A stretch of 64,000 bases of DNA. Origin: Candidatus Heimdallarchaeota archaeon (GTDB lineage: Archaea > Asgardarchaeota > Heimdallarchaeia > Heimdallarchaeales > Heimdallarchaeaceae). The DNA lies in contig JAEOTE010000090.1 in NCBI GenBank assembly GCA_016839945.1, positions 3,414-67,413 of the forward strand, given 5' to 3'. Below, one piece after another: positions 3,286 through 23,615 of the stretch (position 1 is its first letter; each line of letters starts with the position of its first letter). The notes beneath the pieces are model-generated. The model was not told the origin of the DNA. It was given only the letters and a program-made list of their open reading frames with translations, and ran no database searches. The translations under genes and the position numbers were made by a program.

Positions 3286-3522
3286 GAAAAAAGGAATATG
3301 TGACTCTTCTATTCCTAACTTTATTCCCTTCCTTAGTATTACCAGAGAACGAAAAAATCTTAGGTTTTTCGGTTTTGATGCAATTTTTTAAAGAAGAAAT
3401 TGGTTGTGTTTTTTTCTTGATTTTCCTATAGTTTCCAAGAAGGATGCACTTACAATAAAGTAACCTTGCTGCAAAGTTAAAAACAGAGAAGAAGTTAATA
3501 ATCCTTTTTTCAACTAAATACT

Positions 3523-7870: not shown

Positions 7871-8557
7871 ATGATTTCAATCAAAGATATTAAAATTCCT
7901 TGGAAAGAGTTTCTGAGTCCCCGCCTTCTATTTCTTGCAATATGGGTTTTCTTTCTTCTGTATTCTTTCATTTGGGCTCCAGAGGATCAACGAGGTTTGT
8001 CTTTTAGTGATTTTAAATTAGACTTTGTTGGACCTTTGGCTTGGAGTTTGTTTAACCTTGTAGGAGTGTTCGCCCTTCTTTATGCTGTTATTCTCGTTTT
8101 AGAAAGCAGAGAGAGATTTATTCCAGCTTGGCTTTTTGTATTAGCGGCTCTTGGATTTGGAATGTATGCATTAATGCCTTACTTTGCCCTACGAGGAGTG
8201 TGGAAAAAGAACCAAAAAACAAAGAAAACTTGGTTCACAAAAGCAATTGATTCACGTACTCTTGGTATTATATTATACAACCTAACTGTTGTGCTATTAC
8301 TCTTCGGAATCATTGCGGGAAGCTATACAGGAGATTGGAATAATTTTGCTACACTGTTTATGGAAAGCCGGTTTGTACATGTTATGACAATTGATTTTGT
8401 TCTTCTATGTTTGTTTTATCCAATAGTAATATGGGATGATATGAAAAGAAGAAACTGGAAGAACAACATTGCATTTGTGATATTCTGCATTCCTCTATTA
8501 GGTGGAATAACCTATTTGATAGCTAGACCAAGACTTCCAGATGAAACAATCGCATAA
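7871..8557 (+). CDS. integral membrane protein, unknown function
   Basis: 228 aa, about 6 hydrophobic spans. The C-terminal hairpin FCIPLLGGITYLIARPR resembles PLD-N-type small TM domains. Confidence 0.45.
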   Translation: MISIKDIKIPWKEFLSPRLLFLAIWVFFLLYSFIWAPEDQRGLSFSDFKLDFVGPLAWSLFNLVGVFALLYAVILVLESRERFIPAWLFVLAALGFGMYALMPYFALRGVWKKNQKTKKTWFTKAIDSRTLGIILYNLTVVLLLFGIIAGSYTGDWNNFATLFMESRFVHVMTIDFVLLCLFYPIVIWDDMKRRNWKNNIAFVIFCIPLLGGITYLIARPRLPDETIA

Positions 8558-12913: not shown

Positions 12914-14116
12914 ATGACAAAAATCGTAGTAGAAGAAGATCAAGAAATGGAATTGACCAAGGTTGATGGTAATCTTGAGATTTTAGATGGAGCAACAGTA
13001 ATTGTTTCTCCTAATGTTGAATATCTAGCTGTTAGTGGAGATCTGATAAGTAAGGGGGACGTAGTAATTCAAGGTTCAATAGTAGCTGGTGGGTTGAGAC
13101 ATAAAAACGGATATCTCGAAATCGAGGGTGATGCTAAAGTTAAGGAGATATCTGTTTCAAGTGGAAAAATGCGTAATGGTTCTAAATTAATAGTTTATGG
13201 TAATTTAGAAGGAATTGAAGCTGAAATCGATGGTAGTTTAGAAGTTGAAAAGGATTTTATCTGCAAAGATGTAGATATTATGGGATCATGTAAAATTCAT
13301 GGTGAAGCAACTGTAGAAGAGTATGAAGTAAGTGGTTCAGCAAAACACGGTAAGGACTTAAAAGCTAAAGAAGTAGAAGTAAATGGTTCATTAAAAGCAT
13401 CCCAAAGTGTTTTTGTGGAAGAAGATTTTGAAATTTCTGGTTCTGCGAAAATAAGTGATACTCTAAAAGCAGTTAGTGTTAATGTGGGTGGATCTTTTGT
13501 ATGTTCAACTCTAACAGCAACTGAAGTTGATGTTGGAGGTTCAGTAAAAATAACCAGAGGAGAAATTGAGGAAAAAATCGATGTAGGGGGATCATTTAAA
13601 TGCGAAGAATCTCTTAGAGTGCCTAAAGCTTCATGTAATGGATCCTGCCGTTTTGGTGATAATTCACAAGTTAATGTACTTAATATTAATGGAGCAACAA
13701 AAGTTGGTTCAGATTTCGTTTTTCAAACAATTAAAGTAAATGGAGCATTCAATTTTGATACAAACGCCAGTGGTGATACCCTAACAATTAATGGAGCAAC
13801 CCAAGGTGAGGGATTATTAAAACTTAATGAAAAATTAAGTATAAATGGTGCATTGCATGTTGATAAGGTTGAAGCAGACGAAGTAGACATCGCAGGTTCT
13901 TTTGATGGTGAGGAAATTAAAGCCAGATTTATACATGTTTCAAGAAATTCACGTGTTAAAGGGACATTAATTGCAGAAAAAGTAATAGTTGAAGATGAAG
14001 CTCGAGTTGAAAACATAATTGCTGATGATGTTGAACTAGGAGAAAAAGTTAAAGCTTTGAAAGTTCAAGCTAAAAATTTGAATGCTGATCCTTCAGCGAA
14101 ATATCGAACTGAATAA
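12914..14116 (+). CDS. bactofilin-like (polymer-forming cytoskeletal) beta-helix repeat protein
   Basis: 400 aa. At least 13 consecutive repeats of about 17 residues with the pattern [VI]-x-G-[SA] (EVSGSAK..., EVNGSLK..., EISGSAK..., NVGGSF..., DVGGSVK..., DVGGSFK..., NINGATK..., KVNGAF..., TINGATQ..., SINGALH..., DIAGSF...). GGTGA Shine-Dalgarno site 5 nt upstream of the ATG. Confidence 0.6.
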   Translation: MTKIVVEEDQEMELTKVDGNLEILDGATVIVSPNVEYLAVSGDLISKGDVVIQGSIVAGGLRHKNGYLEIEGDAKVKEISVSSGKMRNGSKLIVYGNLEGIEAEIDGSLEVEKDFICKDVDIMGSCKIHGEATVEEYEVSGSAKHGKDLKAKEVEVNGSLKASQSVFVEEDFEISGSAKISDTLKAVSVNVGGSFVCSTLTATEVDVGGSVKITRGEIEEKIDVGGSFKCEESLRVPKASCNGSCRFGDNSQVNVLNINGATKVGSDFVFQTIKVNGAFNFDTNASGDTLTINGATQGEGLLKLNEKLSINGALHVDKVEADEVDIAGSFDGEEIKARFIHVSRNSRVKGTLIAEKVIVEDEARVENIIADDVELGEKVKALKVQAKNLNADPSAKYRTE

Positions 14117-15750: not shown

Positions 15751-15972
15751 TTATCCTCCAAAGAACTTTCTACGCATGTATATGAATTGTTCAGTCGCTT
15801 CTTGATCTTCAGCCATTCTTTCATAATATGATTTAGGTTTTAATAGTATCTTTCTACTTTTTTCCCCAAGTTTATTCATTGATTTCATCCAAACAAGAAG
15901 AAAAGCCACAATAGCAGACACTAATAGACATACAAAAATAGAAATGAAGATTATGTATAGGATTGGAGCCAT
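15751..15972 (-). CDS. possible small single-pass membrane protein
   Basis: 73-aa ORF with an N-terminal hydrophobic helix (ILYIIFISIFVCLLVSAIVAFLLVW). No homology recognised, so the coding status is uncertain. Confidence 0.3.
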   Translation of the reverse strand: MAPILYIIFISIFVCLLVSAIVAFLLVWMKSMNKLGEKSRKILLKPKSYYERMAEDQEATEQFIYMRRKFFGG

Positions 15973-16082
15973 AGTCTATTGTTAACTAGGGATTAATGCC
16001 TTATAAGCATTATTAAAAATGGAGGATTTAGAGTTTTGAAATTTATATAAAATGGTTCAACTCTCAACTGCTCTTATGTGTA

Positions 16083-16149
16083 AATGAGCTCATTGCTCCA
16101 GAGTGGAATCATTTTGATTCATCAAACCAATTTCAATTCATTGCTCACT
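16083..16149 (-). ncRNA. candidate box C/D sRNA guiding 2'-O-methylation of tRNA-Trp C34 and C39
   Basis: Minus strand reads AGUGAGCA|AUGAAUU|GAAAUUGGUUUG|AUGA|AUCAAA|AUGAUUC|CACUCUGGAGCA|AUGA|GCUCAUU. It has a terminal stem UGAGC/GCUCA, C/D'/C'/D-like boxes and two spacers of exactly 12 nt. Each spacer holds a perfect 9-nt complement to the adjacent tRNA-Trp. The N+5 rule selects C39 and C34. Confidence 0.6.
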
Positions 16150-16217
16150 AGGCCACATCTTAAGAACTGAAAGGAGAACCCTAATTACTGGTTATAAGTT
16201 ATAAAAATAAAGGTTTG

Positions 16218-16328
16218 TGGTGGGGACTGGGTGATTTGAACACCCGACCAATTGGTTTCTTCGGATTGGTCATTGCCAAAGCAATGTTCTCTGGAGCCAA
16301 CCACTCTACCGGACTGAGCCAAGTCCCC
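16218..16328 (-). tRNA. tRNA-Trp (anticodon CCA) with 34-nt intron after position 37 and encoded CCA end
   Basis: Minus strand reads GGGGACU UG GCUC AGUCCGGUA GAGU G GUUGG CUCCAG[AGAACAUUGCUUUGGCAAUGACCAAUCCGAAGAA]A CCAAU UGGUC GGGUG UUCAAAU CACCC AGUCCCC A CCA. Acceptor stem is a perfect 7 bp, with a canonical T-arm and A73. Exact intron borders are ambiguous by 1-2 A residues. Confidence 0.9.
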
Positions 16329-16415: not shown

Positions 16416-17522
16416 TTATTCAATGTAGTAATTTCTATCTTCTAATAAAAATCCCCTTAATATCTCCCCATCCTTCTTCTTTGGTGGAATTCTTTCTATA
16501 TTATCATCAAAATTCTCATAATTATCCATAGCCATGATTGTAACTGTTTCATTTTCTTTGGATACCAACATATATTCTCTTAAAATGATCTCGTCGCTTC
16601 TTTTTTTAGCTCGTTTTTCGACTCTCTTTCTATCAATGTTTTTTATAATGTGGTTCTCAAGATTTTCCATTTTTACTTGATTTTCGTTAACATTCTTTAC
16701 TAACCACAAGTGATTTTCGTACTCTATTACGTCACTCACTGCAAATTCTGGTAATCTTACCAAATATGTATTAGTGTATACTTCTGTTCCATCTTTTGAA
16801 GTTGTTTTGTGTTCATAAGCTACAGTCAGTTTTCCTGCAGTCAAATTCTTAATTTCTCTAGCTATTGTTTCAGCTAGGAATTTTGTACTAACATTTGCAG
16901 TTATACCATCATTGTCTACCTCTAGGTCAAGAATATATGCTAATCTTGCGTCTTCATACTGCTTCATCATTTTCTCTATTAGATTTTCTATTTCTTCTTC
17001 TTCTTTTTCTGTTAGTTTCCTGTTTTCTCCCCTAATTTGTAATATTGCTTCAAAATACCCAGATCTATACTTAGAACAATCATCACAACCTTGTCTCACC
17101 ATTTTCAATCTTGTTTTACCTTCCCTTATGAATTCCCCGAATTCTTTGAAAGGTTTGGCTGTTATAGTGGTGATCATGGTAAATTCCTTTACACCATAAT
17201 TCATGATTTTGCTTTCTTCTATATCATCTTCAAATTCAGAATTATAAGAAAAATCAACACTTATTTTTTCTAAGATTTTACTCCGTGAAATTTCTCGAAT
17301 AATTTCTTCTAGACTTTCCTCTCTTCTCCAAGTATCGATGTGAGCTCTAGAAACAAAAATTGTTCCACATGTAGGACAGATTTCAATATCTAAGGAAGGA
17401 GTAATCTTTATTTCTAAAGAATTTTCTCTTTTGAAGCAGTTCTCACACATATTATCTAAGAATGGGCCTTCCTTCTCACCACAAACGGCACAAAATCTTC
17501 CTTTTAGTGAAATTTTAATCAC
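16416..17522 (-). CDS. NMD3 family protein (60S subunit biogenesis/export factor homolog)
   Basis: 368 aa. N-terminal zinc clusters FCAVCGEK...CENC...CPTCG, then the long NMD3-type body with a further CDDC. Confidence 0.7.
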   Translation of the reverse strand: MIKISLKGRFCAVCGEKEGPFLDNMCENCFKRENSLEIKITPSLDIEICPTCGTIFVSRAHIDTWRREESLEEIIREISRSKILEKISVDFSYNSEFEDDIEESKIMNYGVKEFTMITTITAKPFKEFGEFIREGKTRLKMVRQGCDDCSKYRSGYFEAILQIRGENRKLTEKEEEEIENLIEKMMKQYEDARLAYILDLEVDNDGITANVSTKFLAETIAREIKNLTAGKLTVAYEHKTTSKDGTEVYTNTYLVRLPEFAVSDVIEYENHLWLVKNVNENQVKMENLENHIIKNIDRKRVEKRAKKRSDEIILREYMLVSKENETVTIMAMDNYENFDDNIERIPPKKKDGEILRGFLLEDRNYYIE

Positions 17523-17558
17523 CTATATAGCTGTTCTTCTTTAAACTCAAAAAAGTTG

Positions 17559-17876
17559 CTATTTTATTAAAATTGCATGACCAACCTTTTTCTTTTGATC
17601 AGAAGGATTTTCAAACCAAAGTACAGCATCTTTATGAATTAATCTGTTTTCAACTAATAATTTTATGATTTTTACACCAATAACATTTGCAGATGTGCAT
17701 CTTTGGACTTCATTTAGTAACTCTTTTTCAGTTACTAATTCATTTCCATAGAACCTCTGCGATACTTTGATTTTAACATCTTTGCAAAATAATTCTAAAT
17801 CTACAACTTCCTTATCACACGCTGCAACCAATACTTCATTTCGCTGTTTAATGACCTTCATAAAGAAAACAGACAT
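17559..17876 (-). CDS. DUF424 domain-containing protein
   Basis: 105 aa. VLVAACDKEVVDLELF...FYGNELVTEKELLNEV...NVIGVKIIKLLVENRLI...GHAILI fits the conserved archaeal DUF424 pattern. The start may be the internal Met at residue 6. Confidence 0.55.
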   Translation of the reverse strand: MSVFFMKVIKQRNEVLVAACDKEVVDLELFCKDVKIKVSQRFYGNELVTEKELLNEVQRCTSANVIGVKIIKLLVENRLIHKDAVLWFENPSDQKKKVGHAILIK

Positions 17877-17896
17877 TTTATTTCAACTTCATTAGC

Positions 17897-18307
17897 TTAT
17901 TTTCTTAATGGTTTAACAGCTGTGGATGCACCACAAGCATCACAACGTTTCCATAATATTCTGGATTCAGCAACTAGTTTGGTATCAGGTTTACTACACT
18001 CGTTACATATGACATATTCCTTAACGTATCTTTCCAGTAAACTTTGGAGAGTAACTCTAGCATGTTTTCCAGCGAATACAGCACGAGCACCTTCCATTGT
18101 TACAGATGTTGCTAATTCACCAGCCATAAATTTAAGAAAATGATTTTCTTCTCTATTTATTGTTTCCAAGATTTCTCTTATGTTTACAATGAAAGTTTTG
18201 TTTCCCTCAACAACTGAACGAATTATGGGTATTTCAAATCTTGATTGTTCAAAGACCTTTTCAGGTAGTTGACTTCTTGCTCGTTCAAGTAATTCTTTGT
18301 ATTCCAT
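17897..18307 (-). CDS. translation initiation factor aIF-2 subunit beta
   Basis: 136 aa. Core FLKFMAGELATSVTMEG, and a C-terminal zinc ribbon YVICNECSKPDT...CDACG. Confidence 0.9.
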   Translation of the reverse strand: MEYKELLERARSQLPEKVFEQSRFEIPIIRSVVEGNKTFIVNIREILETINREENHFLKFMAGELATSVTMEGARAVFAGKHARVTLQSLLERYVKEYVICNECSKPDTKLVAESRILWKRCDACGASTAVKPLRK

Positions 18308-18441
18308 TTTAATACCTCAACTTCCTCTTTCAGTTATCCTTTTTGTTTGTTTCGTTTAAGTCTTCTTTTTTGTTATTCATTTTCTTCATTACATCAAAAA
18401 CTATTTTAACACAAATCGTTTTCCTATTTTGAGGTTTATAT

Positions 18442-18819
18442 TTGAGTAGTAGAGGCAAAAAACCCACAAAAGGAGGAAAAAAACCTAAAAAAGGTACTCG
18501 AGCAGGAGATTGGGTTACAGCTGATTCAGATGCAATCAGAGCGCAATTACCTGGTGAAGGAGAAGTTTTTGGTATTGTTATTCAGATTTTAGGAGCTAGT
18601 ATTCTTCTAGTTAAATGTCTAGATGGTTTTACAAGACAAATTCGTATCCCAGGTAAATATCGAAAACGTCTTTGGTGTAGAGTTGGGGATGTAGTTATTA
18701 TTATGCCTTTCTATGGTATGAATCCAGATGAAAAGGGAGAGCTCGTTCATCGTTTTCGTAGAAATGAAGTTCAATGGTTAATAAATAATAAGCATATTCC
18801 AGAGGACTTTATTTCATAA
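18442..18819 (+). CDS. translation initiation factor aIF-1A
   Basis: 125 aa. S1/OB core GEVFGIVIQILGASILLVKCLDGFTRQIRIPGKYRKRLWCRVGDVVII. TTG start with GAGGT 6 nt upstream. Confidence 0.9.
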   Translation: MSSRGKKPTKGGKKPKKGTRAGDWVTADSDAIRAQLPGEGEVFGIVIQILGASILLVKCLDGFTRQIRIPGKYRKRLWCRVGDVVIIMPFYGMNPDEKGELVHRFRRNEVQWLINNKHIPEDFIS

Positions 18820-18998
18820 TTTATTATTGTTCTTTACAATTAGATTTTGTATTAGTATAATTAGCTTCATCAATAGTTTTATTTATCTCCCAAACCGTAT
18901 TCAGATAGAAAGCTTTAGCTTTGGAATTAATCGCCCCCTAAAGCAAATCGCTCTGTTGACAAAAACTCACTCTCAATAACAGTAAATTATGTGATTAC

Positions 18999-19799
18999 AT
19001 GTCTCAAAAGGATATTGATCAAATAGATCAGAAGTTAGACAAATCTCGAATGCGAGAAAAGGATAGAGATACGCTTAAAGTAATTGAGAGTGTGTTCGAT
19101 TTTCAAACAAGCATGTTAATAGTAAAATTGATGAATAAAGGAATTTTAAAAGAAATAGGATTTGTTGTTTCAACAGGTAAAGAGGCTAATGTATACCATG
19201 CTTATGGACCTAAGAATGAAGAGTTAGCTATTAAGATTTATAGAACTACAACTGCAGATTTTAAGAGAAATTGGATGTATGTAGAAGGAGATCCACGTTT
19301 TAAACGATACAAGAAGGGGACTTATGCATTTATCTACACATGGGCAAAAAAAGAATTTAAGAATTTACAGAGAATGAACAAGGCTAATGTAAGGGTTCCA
19401 GTTCCTGTCATAGTTTCAAAAAATGTCTTAGTAATGGAGTTTATTGGTAAAAAAGAAACTGCTGCACCTCTCTTAAAGGATGTTGCAATTAAGAAACCCC
19501 AAAAAGTTTACTCAACTGTGGTAGAGTACATTTTTAGATTATACGAAGAAGGAAAACTTGTTCACGCAGATTTAAGTGAGTATAACATACTCTATTACAA
19601 TAAAGAACCCATCTTTATTGATGTCTCTCAATCCGTTCTTCTAGATCATCCACATGCTGCAGTATTTCTTTATAGAGACATAAGTAACATTAACAGGTAT
19701 TTTAGTAGTCTTGGAGTACAAATTATGACAAATGATGAACTTTATGAAAATATTACTAATTCAGAGCCTAGCCCTAAAGTTAAAGCAATCGAAATATAA
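18999..19799 (+). CDS. RIO1-type serine protein kinase
   Basis: 266 aa. STGKEANVY, catalytic LVHADLSEYNILY and metal loop IFIDVSQS. Confidence 0.85.
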   Translation: MSQKDIDQIDQKLDKSRMREKDRDTLKVIESVFDFQTSMLIVKLMNKGILKEIGFVVSTGKEANVYHAYGPKNEELAIKIYRTTTADFKRNWMYVEGDPRFKRYKKGTYAFIYTWAKKEFKNLQRMNKANVRVPVPVIVSKNVLVMEFIGKKETAAPLLKDVAIKKPQKVYSTVVEYIFRLYEEGKLVHADLSEYNILYYNKEPIFIDVSQSVLLDHPHAAVFLYRDISNINRYFSSLGVQIMTNDELYENITNSEPSPKVKAIEI

Positions 19800-20471
19800 T
19801 TGGTGTCAAATATGTCAAGTGAGTTTCTTGTGCGAATTCCCTTAGAAAGAGTAGCTGTATTAATTGGACCTAAGGGAAGTACAAAAAAGAAGATAGAAGA
19901 ATTAACCGAATGCAAACTTATGATAGATAGTAATAGTGGAGATGTTATAATTCTTGCAGAAGAAGAATTGGAAGACCCAATTAGTATGTGGAAAGCAAGA
20001 GATATGATTAAAGCTATTGGGCGTGGATTCAGTCCACAAAACGCATATAAGATTAATAATCCTGGATGGGGATTTGATTTAATTCAAATAAGAGAATTCG
20101 TAGGAACCTCACCAAACGCTTCGAGGGAAGTTAGATCTCGAGTAATAGGGAAGAATGGAAGAACGAGAAACATAATTGAACAGTCTACTGGATCAAATGT
20201 CTCAATTTTTGGGAATACGATTGGTATAATCGCAGAGTTCAACAAAGTTCAATATATCAGAGAGGGGATAATTAAACTGATCAATGGTGCTAAACATAAT
20301 ACTGTCTATAAATATTTAGAACAAAGAATGAGGGAACTTAAGGGAGATAAAGACAAACTATGGGTAAAGCACGCAGATGAAGAGGATCTTGTTAGTATAA
20401 CCGACTTAGATGAATTAGAGAAAGTAGTTTTCGAGGAAGAGGAGAAAGCGAAAGAACAGAATGATGAATAG
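19800..20471 (+). CDS. KH-domain RNA-binding protein (archaeal Dim2/Pno1-like)
   Basis: 223 aa. Two KH-like modules (LIGPKGSTKKKIE and VIGKNGRTRNIIE). It sits in the conserved aIF1A-Rio1-KH arrangement. The start may be the ATG at 19812. Confidence 0.7.
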   Translation: MVSNMSSEFLVRIPLERVAVLIGPKGSTKKKIEELTECKLMIDSNSGDVIILAEEELEDPISMWKARDMIKAIGRGFSPQNAYKINNPGWGFDLIQIREFVGTSPNASREVRSRVIGKNGRTRNIIEQSTGSNVSIFGNTIGIIAEFNKVQYIREGIIKLINGAKHNTVYKYLEQRMRELKGDKDKLWVKHADEEDLVSITDLDELEKVVFEEEEKAKEQNDE

Positions 20472-20487
20472 TTCAAGAGAATAGGGG

Positions 20488-21138
20488 ATGATGGTTAACA
20501 TGAATCCAATTCTGTATGATTTACACATTCACAGTCACTTTTCTTTCGACTGTAAAAGTGATCCAAAAGAAATAATCAAAGTAGCTAAAAAGAAAAATTT
20601 AGCAGGAATAGCAATTACAGATCACAATAAAGTTAATTTTCACTTAAAGGAATATGATAACAAAGGTTTACTAGTAATACCTGGAATTGAAGTTTCTACT
20701 GAAAAAGGTCACGTAATAGGATTAGGTATTAAAGAGCTAATTGAGAGAAAAATGTCTGTTGCAGAAACTATTGAAAAGATATTAGAATTAGGAGGACAAC
20801 CAGTTATTCCTCACCCTTTTGATTTTACAAGAAGAGGTATTGGCAAAGAAATTTATAAACTCAAAAAAATACCCATAGAAACTCAAAATGCATCTTGTCC
20901 TTTGCAGCTATTTAATAGAAAAGCTAAGAAATGGGCTGAGAAAAACAAGCTTCCTCAAACAGGAGGAAGTGATTCTCATAGAATACAAGATATAGGTATG
21001 GCTTTTACAATCTTCAAAGAAGAGTTAGAAACTATAGATGATGTATTAGAAGCTATTAGAAAGAGAAAGTCTTCTTCAGGAGGTACTCATTTATCTATAC
21101 CTGAGAAGATTATAAGAGCTTTTCAGATTCATTTTTAA
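20488..21138 (+). CDS. PHP domain-containing phosphoesterase
   Basis: 216 aa. DLHIHSHFSFDC, ITDHN, PHPFD and GGSDSH metal-ligand motifs. Confidence 0.75.
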   Translation: MMVNMNPILYDLHIHSHFSFDCKSDPKEIIKVAKKKNLAGIAITDHNKVNFHLKEYDNKGLLVIPGIEVSTEKGHVIGLGIKELIERKMSVAETIEKILELGGQPVIPHPFDFTRRGIGKEIYKLKKIPIETQNASCPLQLFNRKAKKWAEKNKLPQTGGSDSHRIQDIGMAFTIFKEELETIDDVLEAIRKRKSSSGGTHLSIPEKIIRAFQIHF

Positions 21139-21197
21139 AATTTAATTTACATATTTTTAAACAGAAGTAGAATAAAAATAAGAGTAGAATGTGGAGC

Positions 21198-21353
21198 TTA
21201 GAAAGCGTTGTTTTTATTCCACATTTCTTCTTTTAACAAGTCACGAATTGCAACTCGTATACACTCACTTCTATTAGGGTATCTCTTTAACCTTACCAAC
21301 TCATCTAAATCATGAAGGAATTCATCTGGTAGATGTACTGTTACTAATTTCAT
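21198..21353 (-). CDS. CopG/NikR-type ribbon-helix-helix protein
   Basis: MKLVTVHLPDEFLHDLDELVRLKRYPNRSECIRVAIRDLLKEE is a classic RHH. Start taken at the internal Met, although the ORF extends to 21383. Paralog of 35914..36123. Confidence 0.65.
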   Translation of the reverse strand: MKLVTVHLPDEFLHDLDELVRLKRYPNRSECIRVAIRDLLKEEMWNKNNAF

Positions 21354-21563
21354 TTCATATACACCTCTGATTCCACTTTTCATTTTGTATTTAAAGGAAA
21401 TGTAATATTAGGAGAATATACTTCTCTATTTTCACATAATTTACTGGTATGATTCCTTCAGAAAAAGAAAGAGAAGAATTCTCTTTAAAACCTCTGGATA
21501 TCTTCCTTTTTGGGATTTAAAAGGTAATACATCTAGTTCTTAATTTTTGAAGCATATCCAGAA

Positions 21564-23615
21564 CTACTTTACTTCAGTTCCAGGAGGTACTTTTTTATCT
21601 AAATTTAGTAAAATTGGTTCACCATCAATGTCTGCAGCTAGAAGCATTCCATCAGATTTTTCACCCATCAATGTTGCAGGTTGCAAATTGGTTACAACAA
21701 CAATTTGTTTTCCCACTAATTTCTCAGGTTCATAATGTTGTTTAATTCCAGCAAGAATTTGTCTTTCTTCTGTTCCTAAGTCTATTTGTAATTTTATTAA
21801 ATTCTTACTTTTTTCCAATGGAGTAGCACTTTTTATTGTAGCTATCTTAATTTGAACATTCTTAAATTCGTCATAAGTTATTTTATTCATTTTATTTCCA
21901 CTTTCCTTCTCTTTTTTCTTGGCTTTCTCTCTTATTTCTTTTAGATTATTTTTTATCTCATTTTCCTTAACTTTGTAGAAAATTGGTTTTATTTTCTTAA
22001 TTTTTTGTCCTGTATTTAATTTGTTTAAATCAATGGTTTCTAACCCTTCATCCACAGGTTTTCCATTGAATCCTAAAGCTAACCAAATCTTTTCTGACGC
22101 ATTAGGTATAATAGGCCACAAAAGAATAGATATTACTTCAGAAATTTTAGCTGAAAGATTCAGAACAGTTCCAGTTTTTTCTTTGTCTTTCTTAATTAAA
22201 TGCCAAGGTTCAACAGATGAGAAGTATTGATTACCTAGTCTAGCAATGTTTACAGCAATGTTCGTTGCATCTTTGATTTTGAAATTATCCATTGCTTTAA
22301 GATAAGATTCAATATTTTCCTCTATTTTAGTGAGTAATTCTTCCTCTATGTCTGTTAACTTTCCTCTTTTAGGGATTTTTCCTTCAAAATGCTGGATTGT
22401 AAATGTAATTGTTCTATGTATGAAGTTACCTACGACATCATTGAGATCAACATTGATAGTAGAAGCAAAATCATCCCATTCAAAGTAGAAATCTTTAAGC
22501 TCTGCTCTGTTAACACTCATAAAGTATCTCCAATAATCTGCAGGCAATGTTTCTATAGCTTCATCACACCATATTCCTATACCTTTTGACTTAGAGAAAG
22601 GTCCTTCTTTGAACTGGATGAAGTTTGTTGTTGCAACAGCATAAGGTAATGGATAAGAATCTCCTGTTGCTAAGAGCATTGCAGGAAAAATCAAAGCATG
22701 AAATATTATATTGTCCTTACCAATACAGAAGACTGTTTTTGTATTTTTGTCTAACCAAAAATCCTTGAAGCGTTCTGGTTTTTCTTGTTCTTCTGCTAGT
22801 AATTTAACTGTACTAATATAACCAAGAACATTTTCAAACCAAACATAGAGAACTTTGTCTTTATACTCTTCACCAAAGATTGGGGCAATTGGAATGCCCC
22901 AAGTCATATCTCGTGAAATTGGTCTTTCAATCAAACCTTCTTCAATCATACTTAGAAGTTTTTGTTTTGCGAATATTGGAATATGTTTATTCTCTTTAGC
23001 GAATTTGTTCAATTCCTTAGAGAAAGCTGGAAGATCAAAATACCAATGACTAGTTTTCCTAAGGACAGGTTTTCGAAGGCAAGTTATACAATGAGGTTTG
23101 ATTAAATCAGTAGGTTTGAGTATGGCTTCACACTCAGGATTGGTGCATTGATCACCTCTAGCACCTTCTGCATTACATATTGGACATTTTCCTTCTACAA
23201 ATCTATCTGGAAGAAATCTTTTATCGTGTTCACAATAAAATTGTTCTGTTTCTTTGAGTTTGAAATATCCATTCTTATGTATTTTTTTATGAAATCCTTG
23301 AACAAACGATATGTGTGTTGGATTATGAGTTATTGTATATTTATCAAATTCAATATTCCATTCTTCTAGAAGTTTTAGGGTTTGATTATGATATTTTGAT
23401 GCTAATTCTTCTGGAGATAATCCTGCGGCTTCTGCTGCAACTACAATTGGTGTACCATGGGCATCAGATCCACTAACATAGATAACATCATGTTTTCTAA
23501 GCTTATGATAACGAGTTATTACATCTCCCCACAATAATTGGGAAAAAGTCCCTAAATGAGGTACATAATTTACATATGGCCATGCTGCCGTGATTACCCA
23601 TTTCTCTTTAGACAT
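21564..23615 (-). CDS. metG: methionine--tRNA ligase with C-terminal tRNA-binding (Trbp111/EMAP-like) domain
   Basis: 683 aa. WPYVNYVPHLGT (HIGH region), zinc knuckles CPICN...CTNPEC...CITC, PFSKSKG (KMSKS region). C-terminal VTNLQPATLMGEKSDGMLLAA is an OB-fold. Confidence 0.9.
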   Translation of the reverse strand: MSKEKWVITAAWPYVNYVPHLGTFSQLLWGDVITRYHKLRKHDVIYVSGSDAHGTPIVVAAEAAGLSPEELASKYHNQTLKLLEEWNIEFDKYTITHNPTHISFVQGFHKKIHKNGYFKLKETEQFYCEHDKRFLPDRFVEGKCPICNAEGARGDQCTNPECEAILKPTDLIKPHCITCLRKPVLRKTSHWYFDLPAFSKELNKFAKENKHIPIFAKQKLLSMIEEGLIERPISRDMTWGIPIAPIFGEEYKDKVLYVWFENVLGYISTVKLLAEEQEKPERFKDFWLDKNTKTVFCIGKDNIIFHALIFPAMLLATGDSYPLPYAVATTNFIQFKEGPFSKSKGIGIWCDEAIETLPADYWRYFMSVNRAELKDFYFEWDDFASTINVDLNDVVGNFIHRTITFTIQHFEGKIPKRGKLTDIEEELLTKIEENIESYLKAMDNFKIKDATNIAVNIARLGNQYFSSVEPWHLIKKDKEKTGTVLNLSAKISEVISILLWPIIPNASEKIWLALGFNGKPVDEGLETIDLNKLNTGQKIKKIKPIFYKVKENEIKNNLKEIREKAKKKEKESGNKMNKITYDEFKNVQIKIATIKSATPLEKSKNLIKLQIDLGTEERQILAGIKQHYEPEKLVGKQIVVVTNLQPATLMGEKSDGMLLAADIDGEPILLNLDKKVPPGTEVK

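Follow-up and report, generated by a model that had tools for sequence, protein, structure and literature searches.

The 64,000-nucleotide (nt) stretch analysed here (the window, positions 3,414 to 67,413 of Candidatus Heimdallarchaeota archaeon contig JAEOTE010000090.1) carries on its minus strand a gene for tRNA-Trp and, 68 nt after the encoded CCA of that gene and on the same strand, a box C/D small RNA (sRNA) at 16083-16149. A first-pass annotation, made from the letters alone, had read a full C/D layout at 16149-16083, placed the tRNA-Trp gene 68 nt upstream and proposed that both guides of the RNA are aimed at this tRNA. The minus-strand sequence proved to be exactly as quoted, with the complete archaeal C/D layout. 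The position of the tRNA gene, which was recovered through Rfam while ARAGORN reported no tRNA in the window, was borne out by the Rfam match and the encoded CCA.

The RNA gene and its tRNA-Trp neighbour

The two genes are made up of the following parts, from the tRNA to the 3ʹ end of the sRNA.

16218-16328, minus strand: tRNA-Trp(CCA) gene, the predicted target (Rfam tRNA match at 16221-16328, 53.7 bits)
16291-16328, minus strand: tRNA-Trp 5ʹ exon (from BLAST of the exons and reading of the sequence)
16257-16290, minus strand: tRNA-Trp intron of 34 nt at position 37/38, a plain hairpin without boxes
16221-16256, minus strand: tRNA-Trp 3ʹ exon (from BLAST of the exons and reading of the sequence)
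16218-16220, minus strand: encoded CCA of tRNA-Trp
16149-16143 paired with 16089-16083, minus strand: terminal stem of the sRNA (C-stem of the kink-turn, or K-turn), 7 base pairs (bp), AGUGAGC with GCUCAUU
16141-16135, minus strand: C box variant AUGAAUU (family pattern RUGA[A/U/C]U[U/A])
16134-16123, minus strand: Dʹ guide, 12 nt, GAAAUUGGUUUG
16122-16119, minus strand: Dʹ box AUGA, the same in every family member
16118-16113, minus strand: loop of 6 nt (5-7 nt across the sRNA family)
16112-16106, minus strand: Cʹ box AUGAUUC, which forms a K-loop with Dʹ and is conserved in relatives
16105-16094, minus strand: D guide, 12 nt, CACUCUGGAGCA
16093-16090, minus strand: D box AUGA, the same in every member and always followed by GC

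A relaxed regular expression for the C/D layout, run over both strands of the 64 kb, matched this RNA and nothing else, against 0-0.01 matches in shuffled sequence. No open reading frame of at least 50 amino acids runs across it (open reading frame list), and scans with canonical and relaxed layouts, which covered the 64-kb window and 375 kb of related loci, yielded no further C/D sRNA. Matches of the expression in two of these loci (L010 and L027) were rejected because they lacked guide or box context and resembled coding sequence. An Rfam match of the sRNA to plasmodium snoR16 was likewise discarded as noise (18.5 bits, against a gathering score of 70), and both the 9-mer GAGCAAUGA, repeated within the window sRNA, and the GCAAUGA of the intron were put down to coincidence, as they were not conserved in relatives.

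At the level of sequence the terminal K-turn is complete. The strand 5ʹ-GAGC/AAU/GA/AU is paired with 3ʹ-CUCG/AG/UA, with A16142, A16141 and U16140 forming the 3-nt bulge and G16139-A16138 the sheared GA core. The second motif has the form of a Cʹ/Dʹ K-loop: its loop is short, and spacers of 12 nt separate C from Dʹ and Cʹ from D. This spacing, pointed out for the window in the first-pass annotation, holds throughout the family except in one member (11 nt, L005). RNAalifold had proposed a 5-bp Watson-Crick hairpin between Dʹ and Cʹ, which was dropped in favour of the K-loop because the L016 clade does not keep it.

K-turn structures have an established geometry in which position 6 of the C box pairs with position 1 of the D box. 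In both motifs of all members this pair is U-A instead of the consensus G-C, which is consistent with the K-turn geometry being kept. The annotation had interpreted the pair as a compensated change from G-C to U-A; the geometry and the family-wide occurrence fit this interpretation, but the family shows no covariation at the pair and the C box deviates at positions 5 and 7 as well.

Guide pairing, relatives and intronic copies

The two 9-bp complements to pre-tRNA-Trp that had been predicted were found to be exact. In the Dʹ guide, AAUUGGUUU pairs with the last two intron nt and tRNA positions 38-44, and in the D guide, CUCUGGAGC pairs with positions 31-37 and the first two intron nt; no other complement of sRNA and pre-tRNA is as long as 9 nt. 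A random 12-mer has a complement of at least 9 nt to the pre-tRNA with a probability of ~9e-4, and two such 12-mers with ~8e-7. When the N+5 rule was applied, that is, five nt upstream of Dʹ and D, the pairs G16127:C39 and G16098:C34 were obtained (C39 is base 16255 and C34 is base 16294), which are the positions named at the outset, and N+5 fell on C39 and C34 in every sRNA/tRNA pair compared.

The Dʹ guide forms 9 bp on the pre-tRNA and 10 bp, with one G-U, on the spliced tRNA, and its pairing is kept in relatives. The D guide of the window forms 9 bp on the pre-tRNA versus 8 bp on the spliced tRNA; across relatives it forms 9-11 bp on the pre-tRNA, always beyond the 7-8 bp on the spliced form. 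Guide and intron also change together. Guide position 9 goes from U to A exactly where intron nt 1 goes from A to U (L005 and L055), and position 3 of the Dʹ guide is A opposite a U as last intron nt in L005, with U opposite A in the other members. In L038 the guide pairing is extended to fit its own intron, and the same was seen for L025 when paired by hand. Because the D guide pairs further on the unspliced tRNA and covaries with intron nucleotides, the pre-tRNA appears to be the substrate of the guide, as it is of the intron-encoded guide of Euryarchaeota.

Within the short intron, GACCAAUCC at 16263-16271 on the minus strand mimics ACCAAUUGG of the 3ʹ exon in the window, L001 and L037, and not in other clades. 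Either the 5ʹ half of the anticodon stem or the Dʹ guide could serve as its pairing partner.

For comparison, 29 genome loci were fetched using NMD3, and not the RNA, as the anchor. Homologues of the sRNA lie directly after tRNA-Trp in L001, L002, L003, L004 (cut by the contig end) and L016; in L021 the homologue is 1.2 kb from tRNA-Trp, and in L025 it is on the strand opposite to the tRNA. A covariance model scored the members at 63-94 bits with one copy per locus, pattern-only chance matches at no more than 18 bits, and recovered L025, which was outside its training set, at 43 bits. A metagenome scan with a pattern in which Dʹ and D could begin with A or C added ~10 distinct members, all with AUGA; about half of its 29 pattern matches were chance, scoring 18 bits or less with the model.

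The boxes, the spacing and the guide/target covariation, proposed beforehand as a check in relatives, were found to be conserved. The GA cores, the sequence AUGA of both D and Dʹ, and U at C-box position 6 were constant in at least 17 distinct Heimdallarchaeota members, and the GA dinucleotides, the UGA of the C box and the position-6 U were unvarying in 18 aligned sequences. The lineages that carry these conserved boxes, spacings and stems have NMD3 proteins only 45-68% identical. Local duplication has left a trace in L021: just upstream of the full copy, and in tandem with it, part of the cassette's 5ʹ half is repeated in degenerate form at 8340-8408 (model match of 22.6 bits, E 0.02).

In L005 and L055, the tRNA-Trp intron is 85-86 nt long and contains a homologous C/D RNA with boxes as unusual as those of the window (AUGAAUA ... 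AUGA ... AUGAUUA ... AUGA). Short and long introns have common ends (xGAA... and ...CGAAGAx), with a plain hairpin between them in the short form versus a C/D body in the long form. The homologous RNA inside these introns therefore ties the window sRNA to the known intron-encoded 34/39 guide, strengthening a likeness that the first-pass annotation had drawn from Haloferax volcanii.

The free-standing form is commoner than the intronic form in this family, and in a neighbour-joining tree of NMD3, L005 and L055 form one clade nested among the lineages with free-standing cassettes. The guide RNA may have moved between the tRNA intron and independent loci within one Asgard family; secondary capture of the guide into the intron is possible, and so is a long coexistence of intronic and free-standing forms followed by loss. 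Describing the guide as externalised from the intron was apt in that the RNA is free-standing and the 34-nt intron has no boxes, but it presupposes a direction of the move that the NMD3 tree, with its nested intronic clade, does not give. Among the free-standing copies, the tRNA-adjacent position is suggested to be ancestral, because remote cassettes (L052 at ~2372-2420 on the minus strand, L036, L043 and L045) are still preceded by a tRNA 3ʹ-end relic (..CCACCA) together with the trailer and the T-rich block. The relic stretch of L052 is near-identical over ~34 nt to the tRNA-adjacent arrangement of L016.

Some related Heimdallarchaeota tRNA-Trp genes have, alongside the canonical 37/38 intron, a second intron at non-canonical positions (L005:5321-5359; L014 and L052/L053, after position ~43; L055:~2485-2514). 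The second-intron positions seen were the T-arm, after position ~43 and the D-arm.

The flanking hairpin and its bulge-helix-bulge

The functional unit is larger than 16083-16149 and comprises a hairpin from 16054 to 16180, which the first-pass annotation had missed and which has a sequence block on either side.

16199-16212, minus strand: T/A-rich block CUUUAUUUUUAUAA, probably serving the tRNA as oligo-T terminator and the sRNA cassette as TATA box
16054-16180, minus strand: whole precursor hairpin of ~127 nt (outermost helix, outer helix, bulge-helix-bulge, inner helix, terminal stem and C/D body)
16176-16180 paired with 16054-16058, minus strand: outermost helix, GGUUC with GAACC
16165-16174 paired with 16060-16069, minus strand: outer helix, 8 of 10 pairs changed on both sides, 88% of cells paired
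16161-16164 paired with 16073-16076, minus strand: central 4-bp helix, CUUA with UAAG, 98% of cells paired
16158-16160, minus strand: 5ʹ-strand bulge AGA, 3 nt and no indel in 16/16 sequences
16070-16072, minus strand: 3ʹ-strand bulge AGC, 3 nt and no indel in 16/16 sequences
16154-16157 paired with 16077-16080, minus strand: inner helix, UGUG with CACA, 3 of 4 pairs compensatory
16041-16052, minus strand: block UUUUAUAUAAAU after the hairpin, likely a terminator for the cassette and a TATA box for the gene downstream

The long flank helix was predicted unprompted by RNAalifold on 16 homologues. When the structure was scored as outer helix, 3-nt 3ʹ bulge, 4-bp helix, 3-nt 5ʹ bulge, inner helix and terminal stem, 91.1% of cells were paired and 18 of 26 pairs were compensatory, a result reached by none of 500 shuffles; slid controls had 34-45% of cells paired. 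The terminal stem (helix 4 across the 16 homologues) had 6 of 8 pairs changed on both sides and 92% of cells paired. The central helix covaries between CUUA/UAAG and CUCA/UGAG, with all 4 bp intact in 15 of the 16 sequences.

A bulge-helix-bulge is defined by two 3-nt bulges with a 4-bp helix between them (PMC6379350). The cassette has this geometry, reading CUUA/AGA/UGUG ... CACA/UAAG/AGC/AGUUGAGAG, and each bulge is 3ʹ of its own central-helix segment, as in the topology of the pre-tRNA motif. In single-sequence predictions, the minimum-free-energy fold of 16053-16179 was a single long hairpin (-34.3 kcal/mol, z = -2.0), in which the window showed the two 3-nt bulges but a 7-bp central helix; L016 folded with the exact 4-bp central helix (z -3.1), and L037 gave a long hairpin with a less clean motif (z -4.1).

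From the bulge-helix-bulge flanks, together with the broad-specificity (alpha-beta)2 splicing endonuclease of Asgard archaea (PMC5829648) and the stable circles formed by excised tRNA-Trp introns in the archaea examined so far (PMC3326292, PMC12558985), we infer that an RNA of ~88 nt, 16158-16071, is probably excised and possibly circular. The predicted endonuclease cuts would fall at 16159/16158 and 16071/16070, each ±1 nt, the position in the 5ʹ bulge having been set by analogy with cleavage at 37/38. The circle junction would then read CACAUAAGAG/AUGUGGCC (also written CACATAAGAG/ATGTGGCC) and the junction of the ligated flanks UUCUUAAG/CAGUUGAGAG (also written TTCTTAAG/CAGTTGAGAG), again ±1 nt. 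A minus-strand transcript of about 65 nt had been expected for this RNA; its strand agrees with the sRNA, but the product would more likely be the ~88-nt RNA released from the hairpin.

Whether the hairpin is a substrate of the splicing endonuclease was weighed against another explanation, in which the RNA is a real C/D guide and the flank hairpin is a stabilising or assembly stem that other nucleases trim, the 3-4-3 geometry being coincidental. Archaeal C/D sRNAs are generally matured without a bulge-helix-bulge, and according to reviews their ends usually do not form one (PMC7994747). Furthermore, the more distant L025 and L038 have no clean motif, a mismatch lies beside the 5ʹ bulge in 5 of 16 sequences, and an alternative register, shifted by one nucleotide, exists. 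These points count against endonuclease processing, and all but the register speak for trimming. What speaks against trimming is that both bulges keep their exact size of 3 nt and their distance of 4 bp, free of indels, in all 16 sequences, while the flanking helices change by compensatory substitution, and that the strand topology is that of the pre-tRNA motif. Trimming by other nucleases seems possible but less likely than not, and we incline slightly towards processing by the splicing endonuclease. Because C/D sRNA ends usually lack this motif, a free-standing C/D sRNA made by the endonuclease route would be without precedent.

Transcription of the cassette probably starts from a TATA-like promoter of its own, to judge by the sequence between the two genes. 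On the minus strand, TTTTTATAA at 16207-16199 has its centre ~23-26 nt before G16180 at the hairpin base, and in every cassette, even remote ones without an upstream tRNA, the T/A-rich block stops 24-30 nt ahead of the outer helix or hairpin base. An own promoter is favoured over co-transcription with the tRNA because the block between the genes also precedes cassettes that have no upstream tRNA.

The bulge-helix-bulge of the sRNA cassette is more canonical than that of its target tRNA. The motif of pre-tRNA-Trp is relaxed in both the short- and long-intron forms, where C34 faces A in the central helix (CUCC opposite GAAG), and with this C-A mismatch it folds poorly in minimum-free-energy predictions.

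Function, known counterparts and significance

The sRNA is very probably a functional guide for methylation of tRNA-Trp, judging from its boxes, its pairing and their conservation. The explanation that we favour as a whole, and regard as likely, is a free-standing C/D guide gene dedicated to the adjacent tRNA-Trp. A short transcript, probably from its own TATA-like promoter at 16199-16212, would fold into the hairpin 16054-16180. The tRNA splicing endonuclease would cut both 3-nt bulges and free the ~88-nt RNA, which tRNA ligase may circularise, as happens with excised tRNA-Trp introns. L7Ae would bind at two sites, the K-turn that C box AUGAAU and D box AUGA form at the terminal stem and the K-loop formed by Cʹ and Dʹ inside the RNA, and Nop5 and fibrillarin would assemble next. 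The D guide would then lie over the 5ʹ exon/intron junction with C34 at the methylation site, and the Dʹ guide over the intron/3ʹ exon junction with C39, yielding Cm34 and Cm39 before splicing. Among 19 window proteins scanned against Pfam there was no L7Ae, Nop5, fibrillarin, EndA or RtcB; L7Ae, Nop5 and fibrillarin are generally present in archaea (PMC7994747).

Several observations weigh against a guide function. None of the members has consensus boxes (RUGAUGA for C, CUGA for D): the C box departs from consensus at positions 5-7, and D and Dʹ are AUGA. Over the sRNA, Rfam gave no C/D family match even at E up to 10, which agrees with the expectation that such a box variant would be missed by standard tools. 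The guides are short (9 bp) and A/U-rich. The full copy of L021 has a mismatch at N+5 of its Dʹ guide (G to U), and the AB_125 clade (L006, L009-L013 and L017) yielded no guide copy to the covariance model within its ~9-kb loci.

The off-consensus boxes and the absence of an Rfam match would also suit a conserved antisense RNA on the pre-tRNA-Trp junctions, acting as a chaperone or timer of folding and splicing, with boxes that no longer recruit fibrillarin. Both duplexes do lie over exon-intron junctions, and their pairing covaries with intron nucleotides. However, the strict 12-nt spacing, the GA cores, the K-turn stem and the placing of N+5 at 34 and 39 are what the methylation machinery needs and would be superfluous for plain antisense pairing; moreover, the known intronic homologues guide methylation (PMC4090602). 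We therefore consider an antisense role improbable. It is hardly credible that the region has no function and either arose by decay of an inverted tRNA-Trp anticodon region or resembles it by chance: the order of the complements, 3ʹ-side first and then 5ʹ-side, fits an inverted copy, but the reverse-complemented sRNA matches the tRNA in the two 9-nt guide segments alone and not through the boxes, as decay would have left it according to the first-pass annotation, the 20 nt between the guides are unrelated to the intron, and lineages as distant as their NMD3 proteins indicate have kept boxes, spacing and stems, with covariation.

The textbook example of a functional tRNA intron is the one behind RNA-guided methylation of positions 34 and 39 in tRNA-Trp, and the duplexes of the intron guide reportedly span the exon-intron junctions (Clouet d'Orval, 2001). 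Junction-crossing duplexes at 34/39 are present in the window sRNA too. In Haloferax and Pyrococcus, the tRNA-Trp intron guides Cm34 and Um39, acting in trans (PMC4090602, PMC7994747). The guide described here and the intron-encoded guide (Haloferax volcanii; Pyrococcus sR50) have in common the target tRNA, the positions 34 and 39, and the presence of both guides in one RNA (PMC4090602, PMC7994747, PMC11408192). The window guide differs in having a cassette of its own, separate from the tRNA and 68 nt downstream of it, whereas the copies of L005 and L055 do reside in the intron; in addition, position 39 in the window is C rather than U, and D/Dʹ are AUGA rather than CUGA.

The tRNA-Trp intron of Sulfolobus solfataricus is 65 nt long, forms a stable circle and is reported to have no consensus C/D boxes but two 7-nt complements to 34/39 (PMC3326292). 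Compared by description, it resembles the window sRNA in its off-consensus boxes; the Sulfolobus copy is intronic. Other substrates with a bulge-helix-bulge outside tRNAs, namely pre-rRNA stems and the Thermoproteus signal recognition particle RNA, have the same 3-nt bulges 4 bp apart in a long flank helix (PMC6379350, PMC7994747), and excision with circularisation would be expected for the window cassette likewise. Its cargo, unlike theirs, is a C/D guide RNA with a gene of its own. Dicistronic units of a tRNA and a C/D sRNA (Ignicoccus, Thermoproteus, Nanoarchaeum; plant tRNA-snoRNA) are alike in having the sRNA directly downstream on the same strand (PMC7994747). The sRNA of those units does not target the preceding tRNA and takes its 5ʹ end from tRNA 3ʹ processing, whereas at the present locus an oligo-T/TATA block lies between the genes, the sRNA targets its neighbour, and the cassette is also found away from any tRNA.

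Judged by sequence comparison, the RNA gene is real, conserved and homologous to the intron-encoded guide, and what is new is its free-standing position, its variant boxes and its bulge-helix-bulge cassette. The guide function for tRNA-Trp would thereby be carried by a separate gene in Asgard archaea, the archaeal group closest to eukaryotes, and the sister lineage with intronic copies permits a direct comparison. If the guide did move between intron and independent loci, in either direction, it would provide an archaeal precedent for the intron-hosted versus independent snoRNA genes of eukaryotes. If the bulge-helix-bulge is used, this guide would be the first among free-standing C/D RNAs to be produced by the tRNA-splicing machinery, giving a concrete mechanism for circular C/D RNAs and a simple model for guide RNAs entering or leaving introns. 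As D boxes of the form AUGA escape standard snoRNA finders and Rfam, the guide RNAs of Asgard and other mesophilic archaea may be under-counted.

Around the two RNA genes, a small membrane-protein gene lies downstream at 15751-15972 on the minus strand (open reading frame list). The upstream gene encodes an NMD3-family protein whose closest relatives are in Heimdallarchaeota metagenome-assembled genomes, and the G+C content is ~32%. It belongs to a translation and ribosome-biogenesis cluster at 16416-23615 (NMD3, DUF424, eIF2-beta, eIF1A, Rio1 kinase, a Krr1/Pno1-like KH protein, a PHP-domain protein and methionyl-tRNA synthetase, MetRS). In genomes of the AB_125 type, tRNA-Trp has a short intron and is directly followed by a gene on the opposite strand. 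Further away in the window, 12914-14116 on the plus strand encodes a highly repetitive protein of 400 amino acids with a C-terminal bactofilin domain (Pfam E 1.8e-12).

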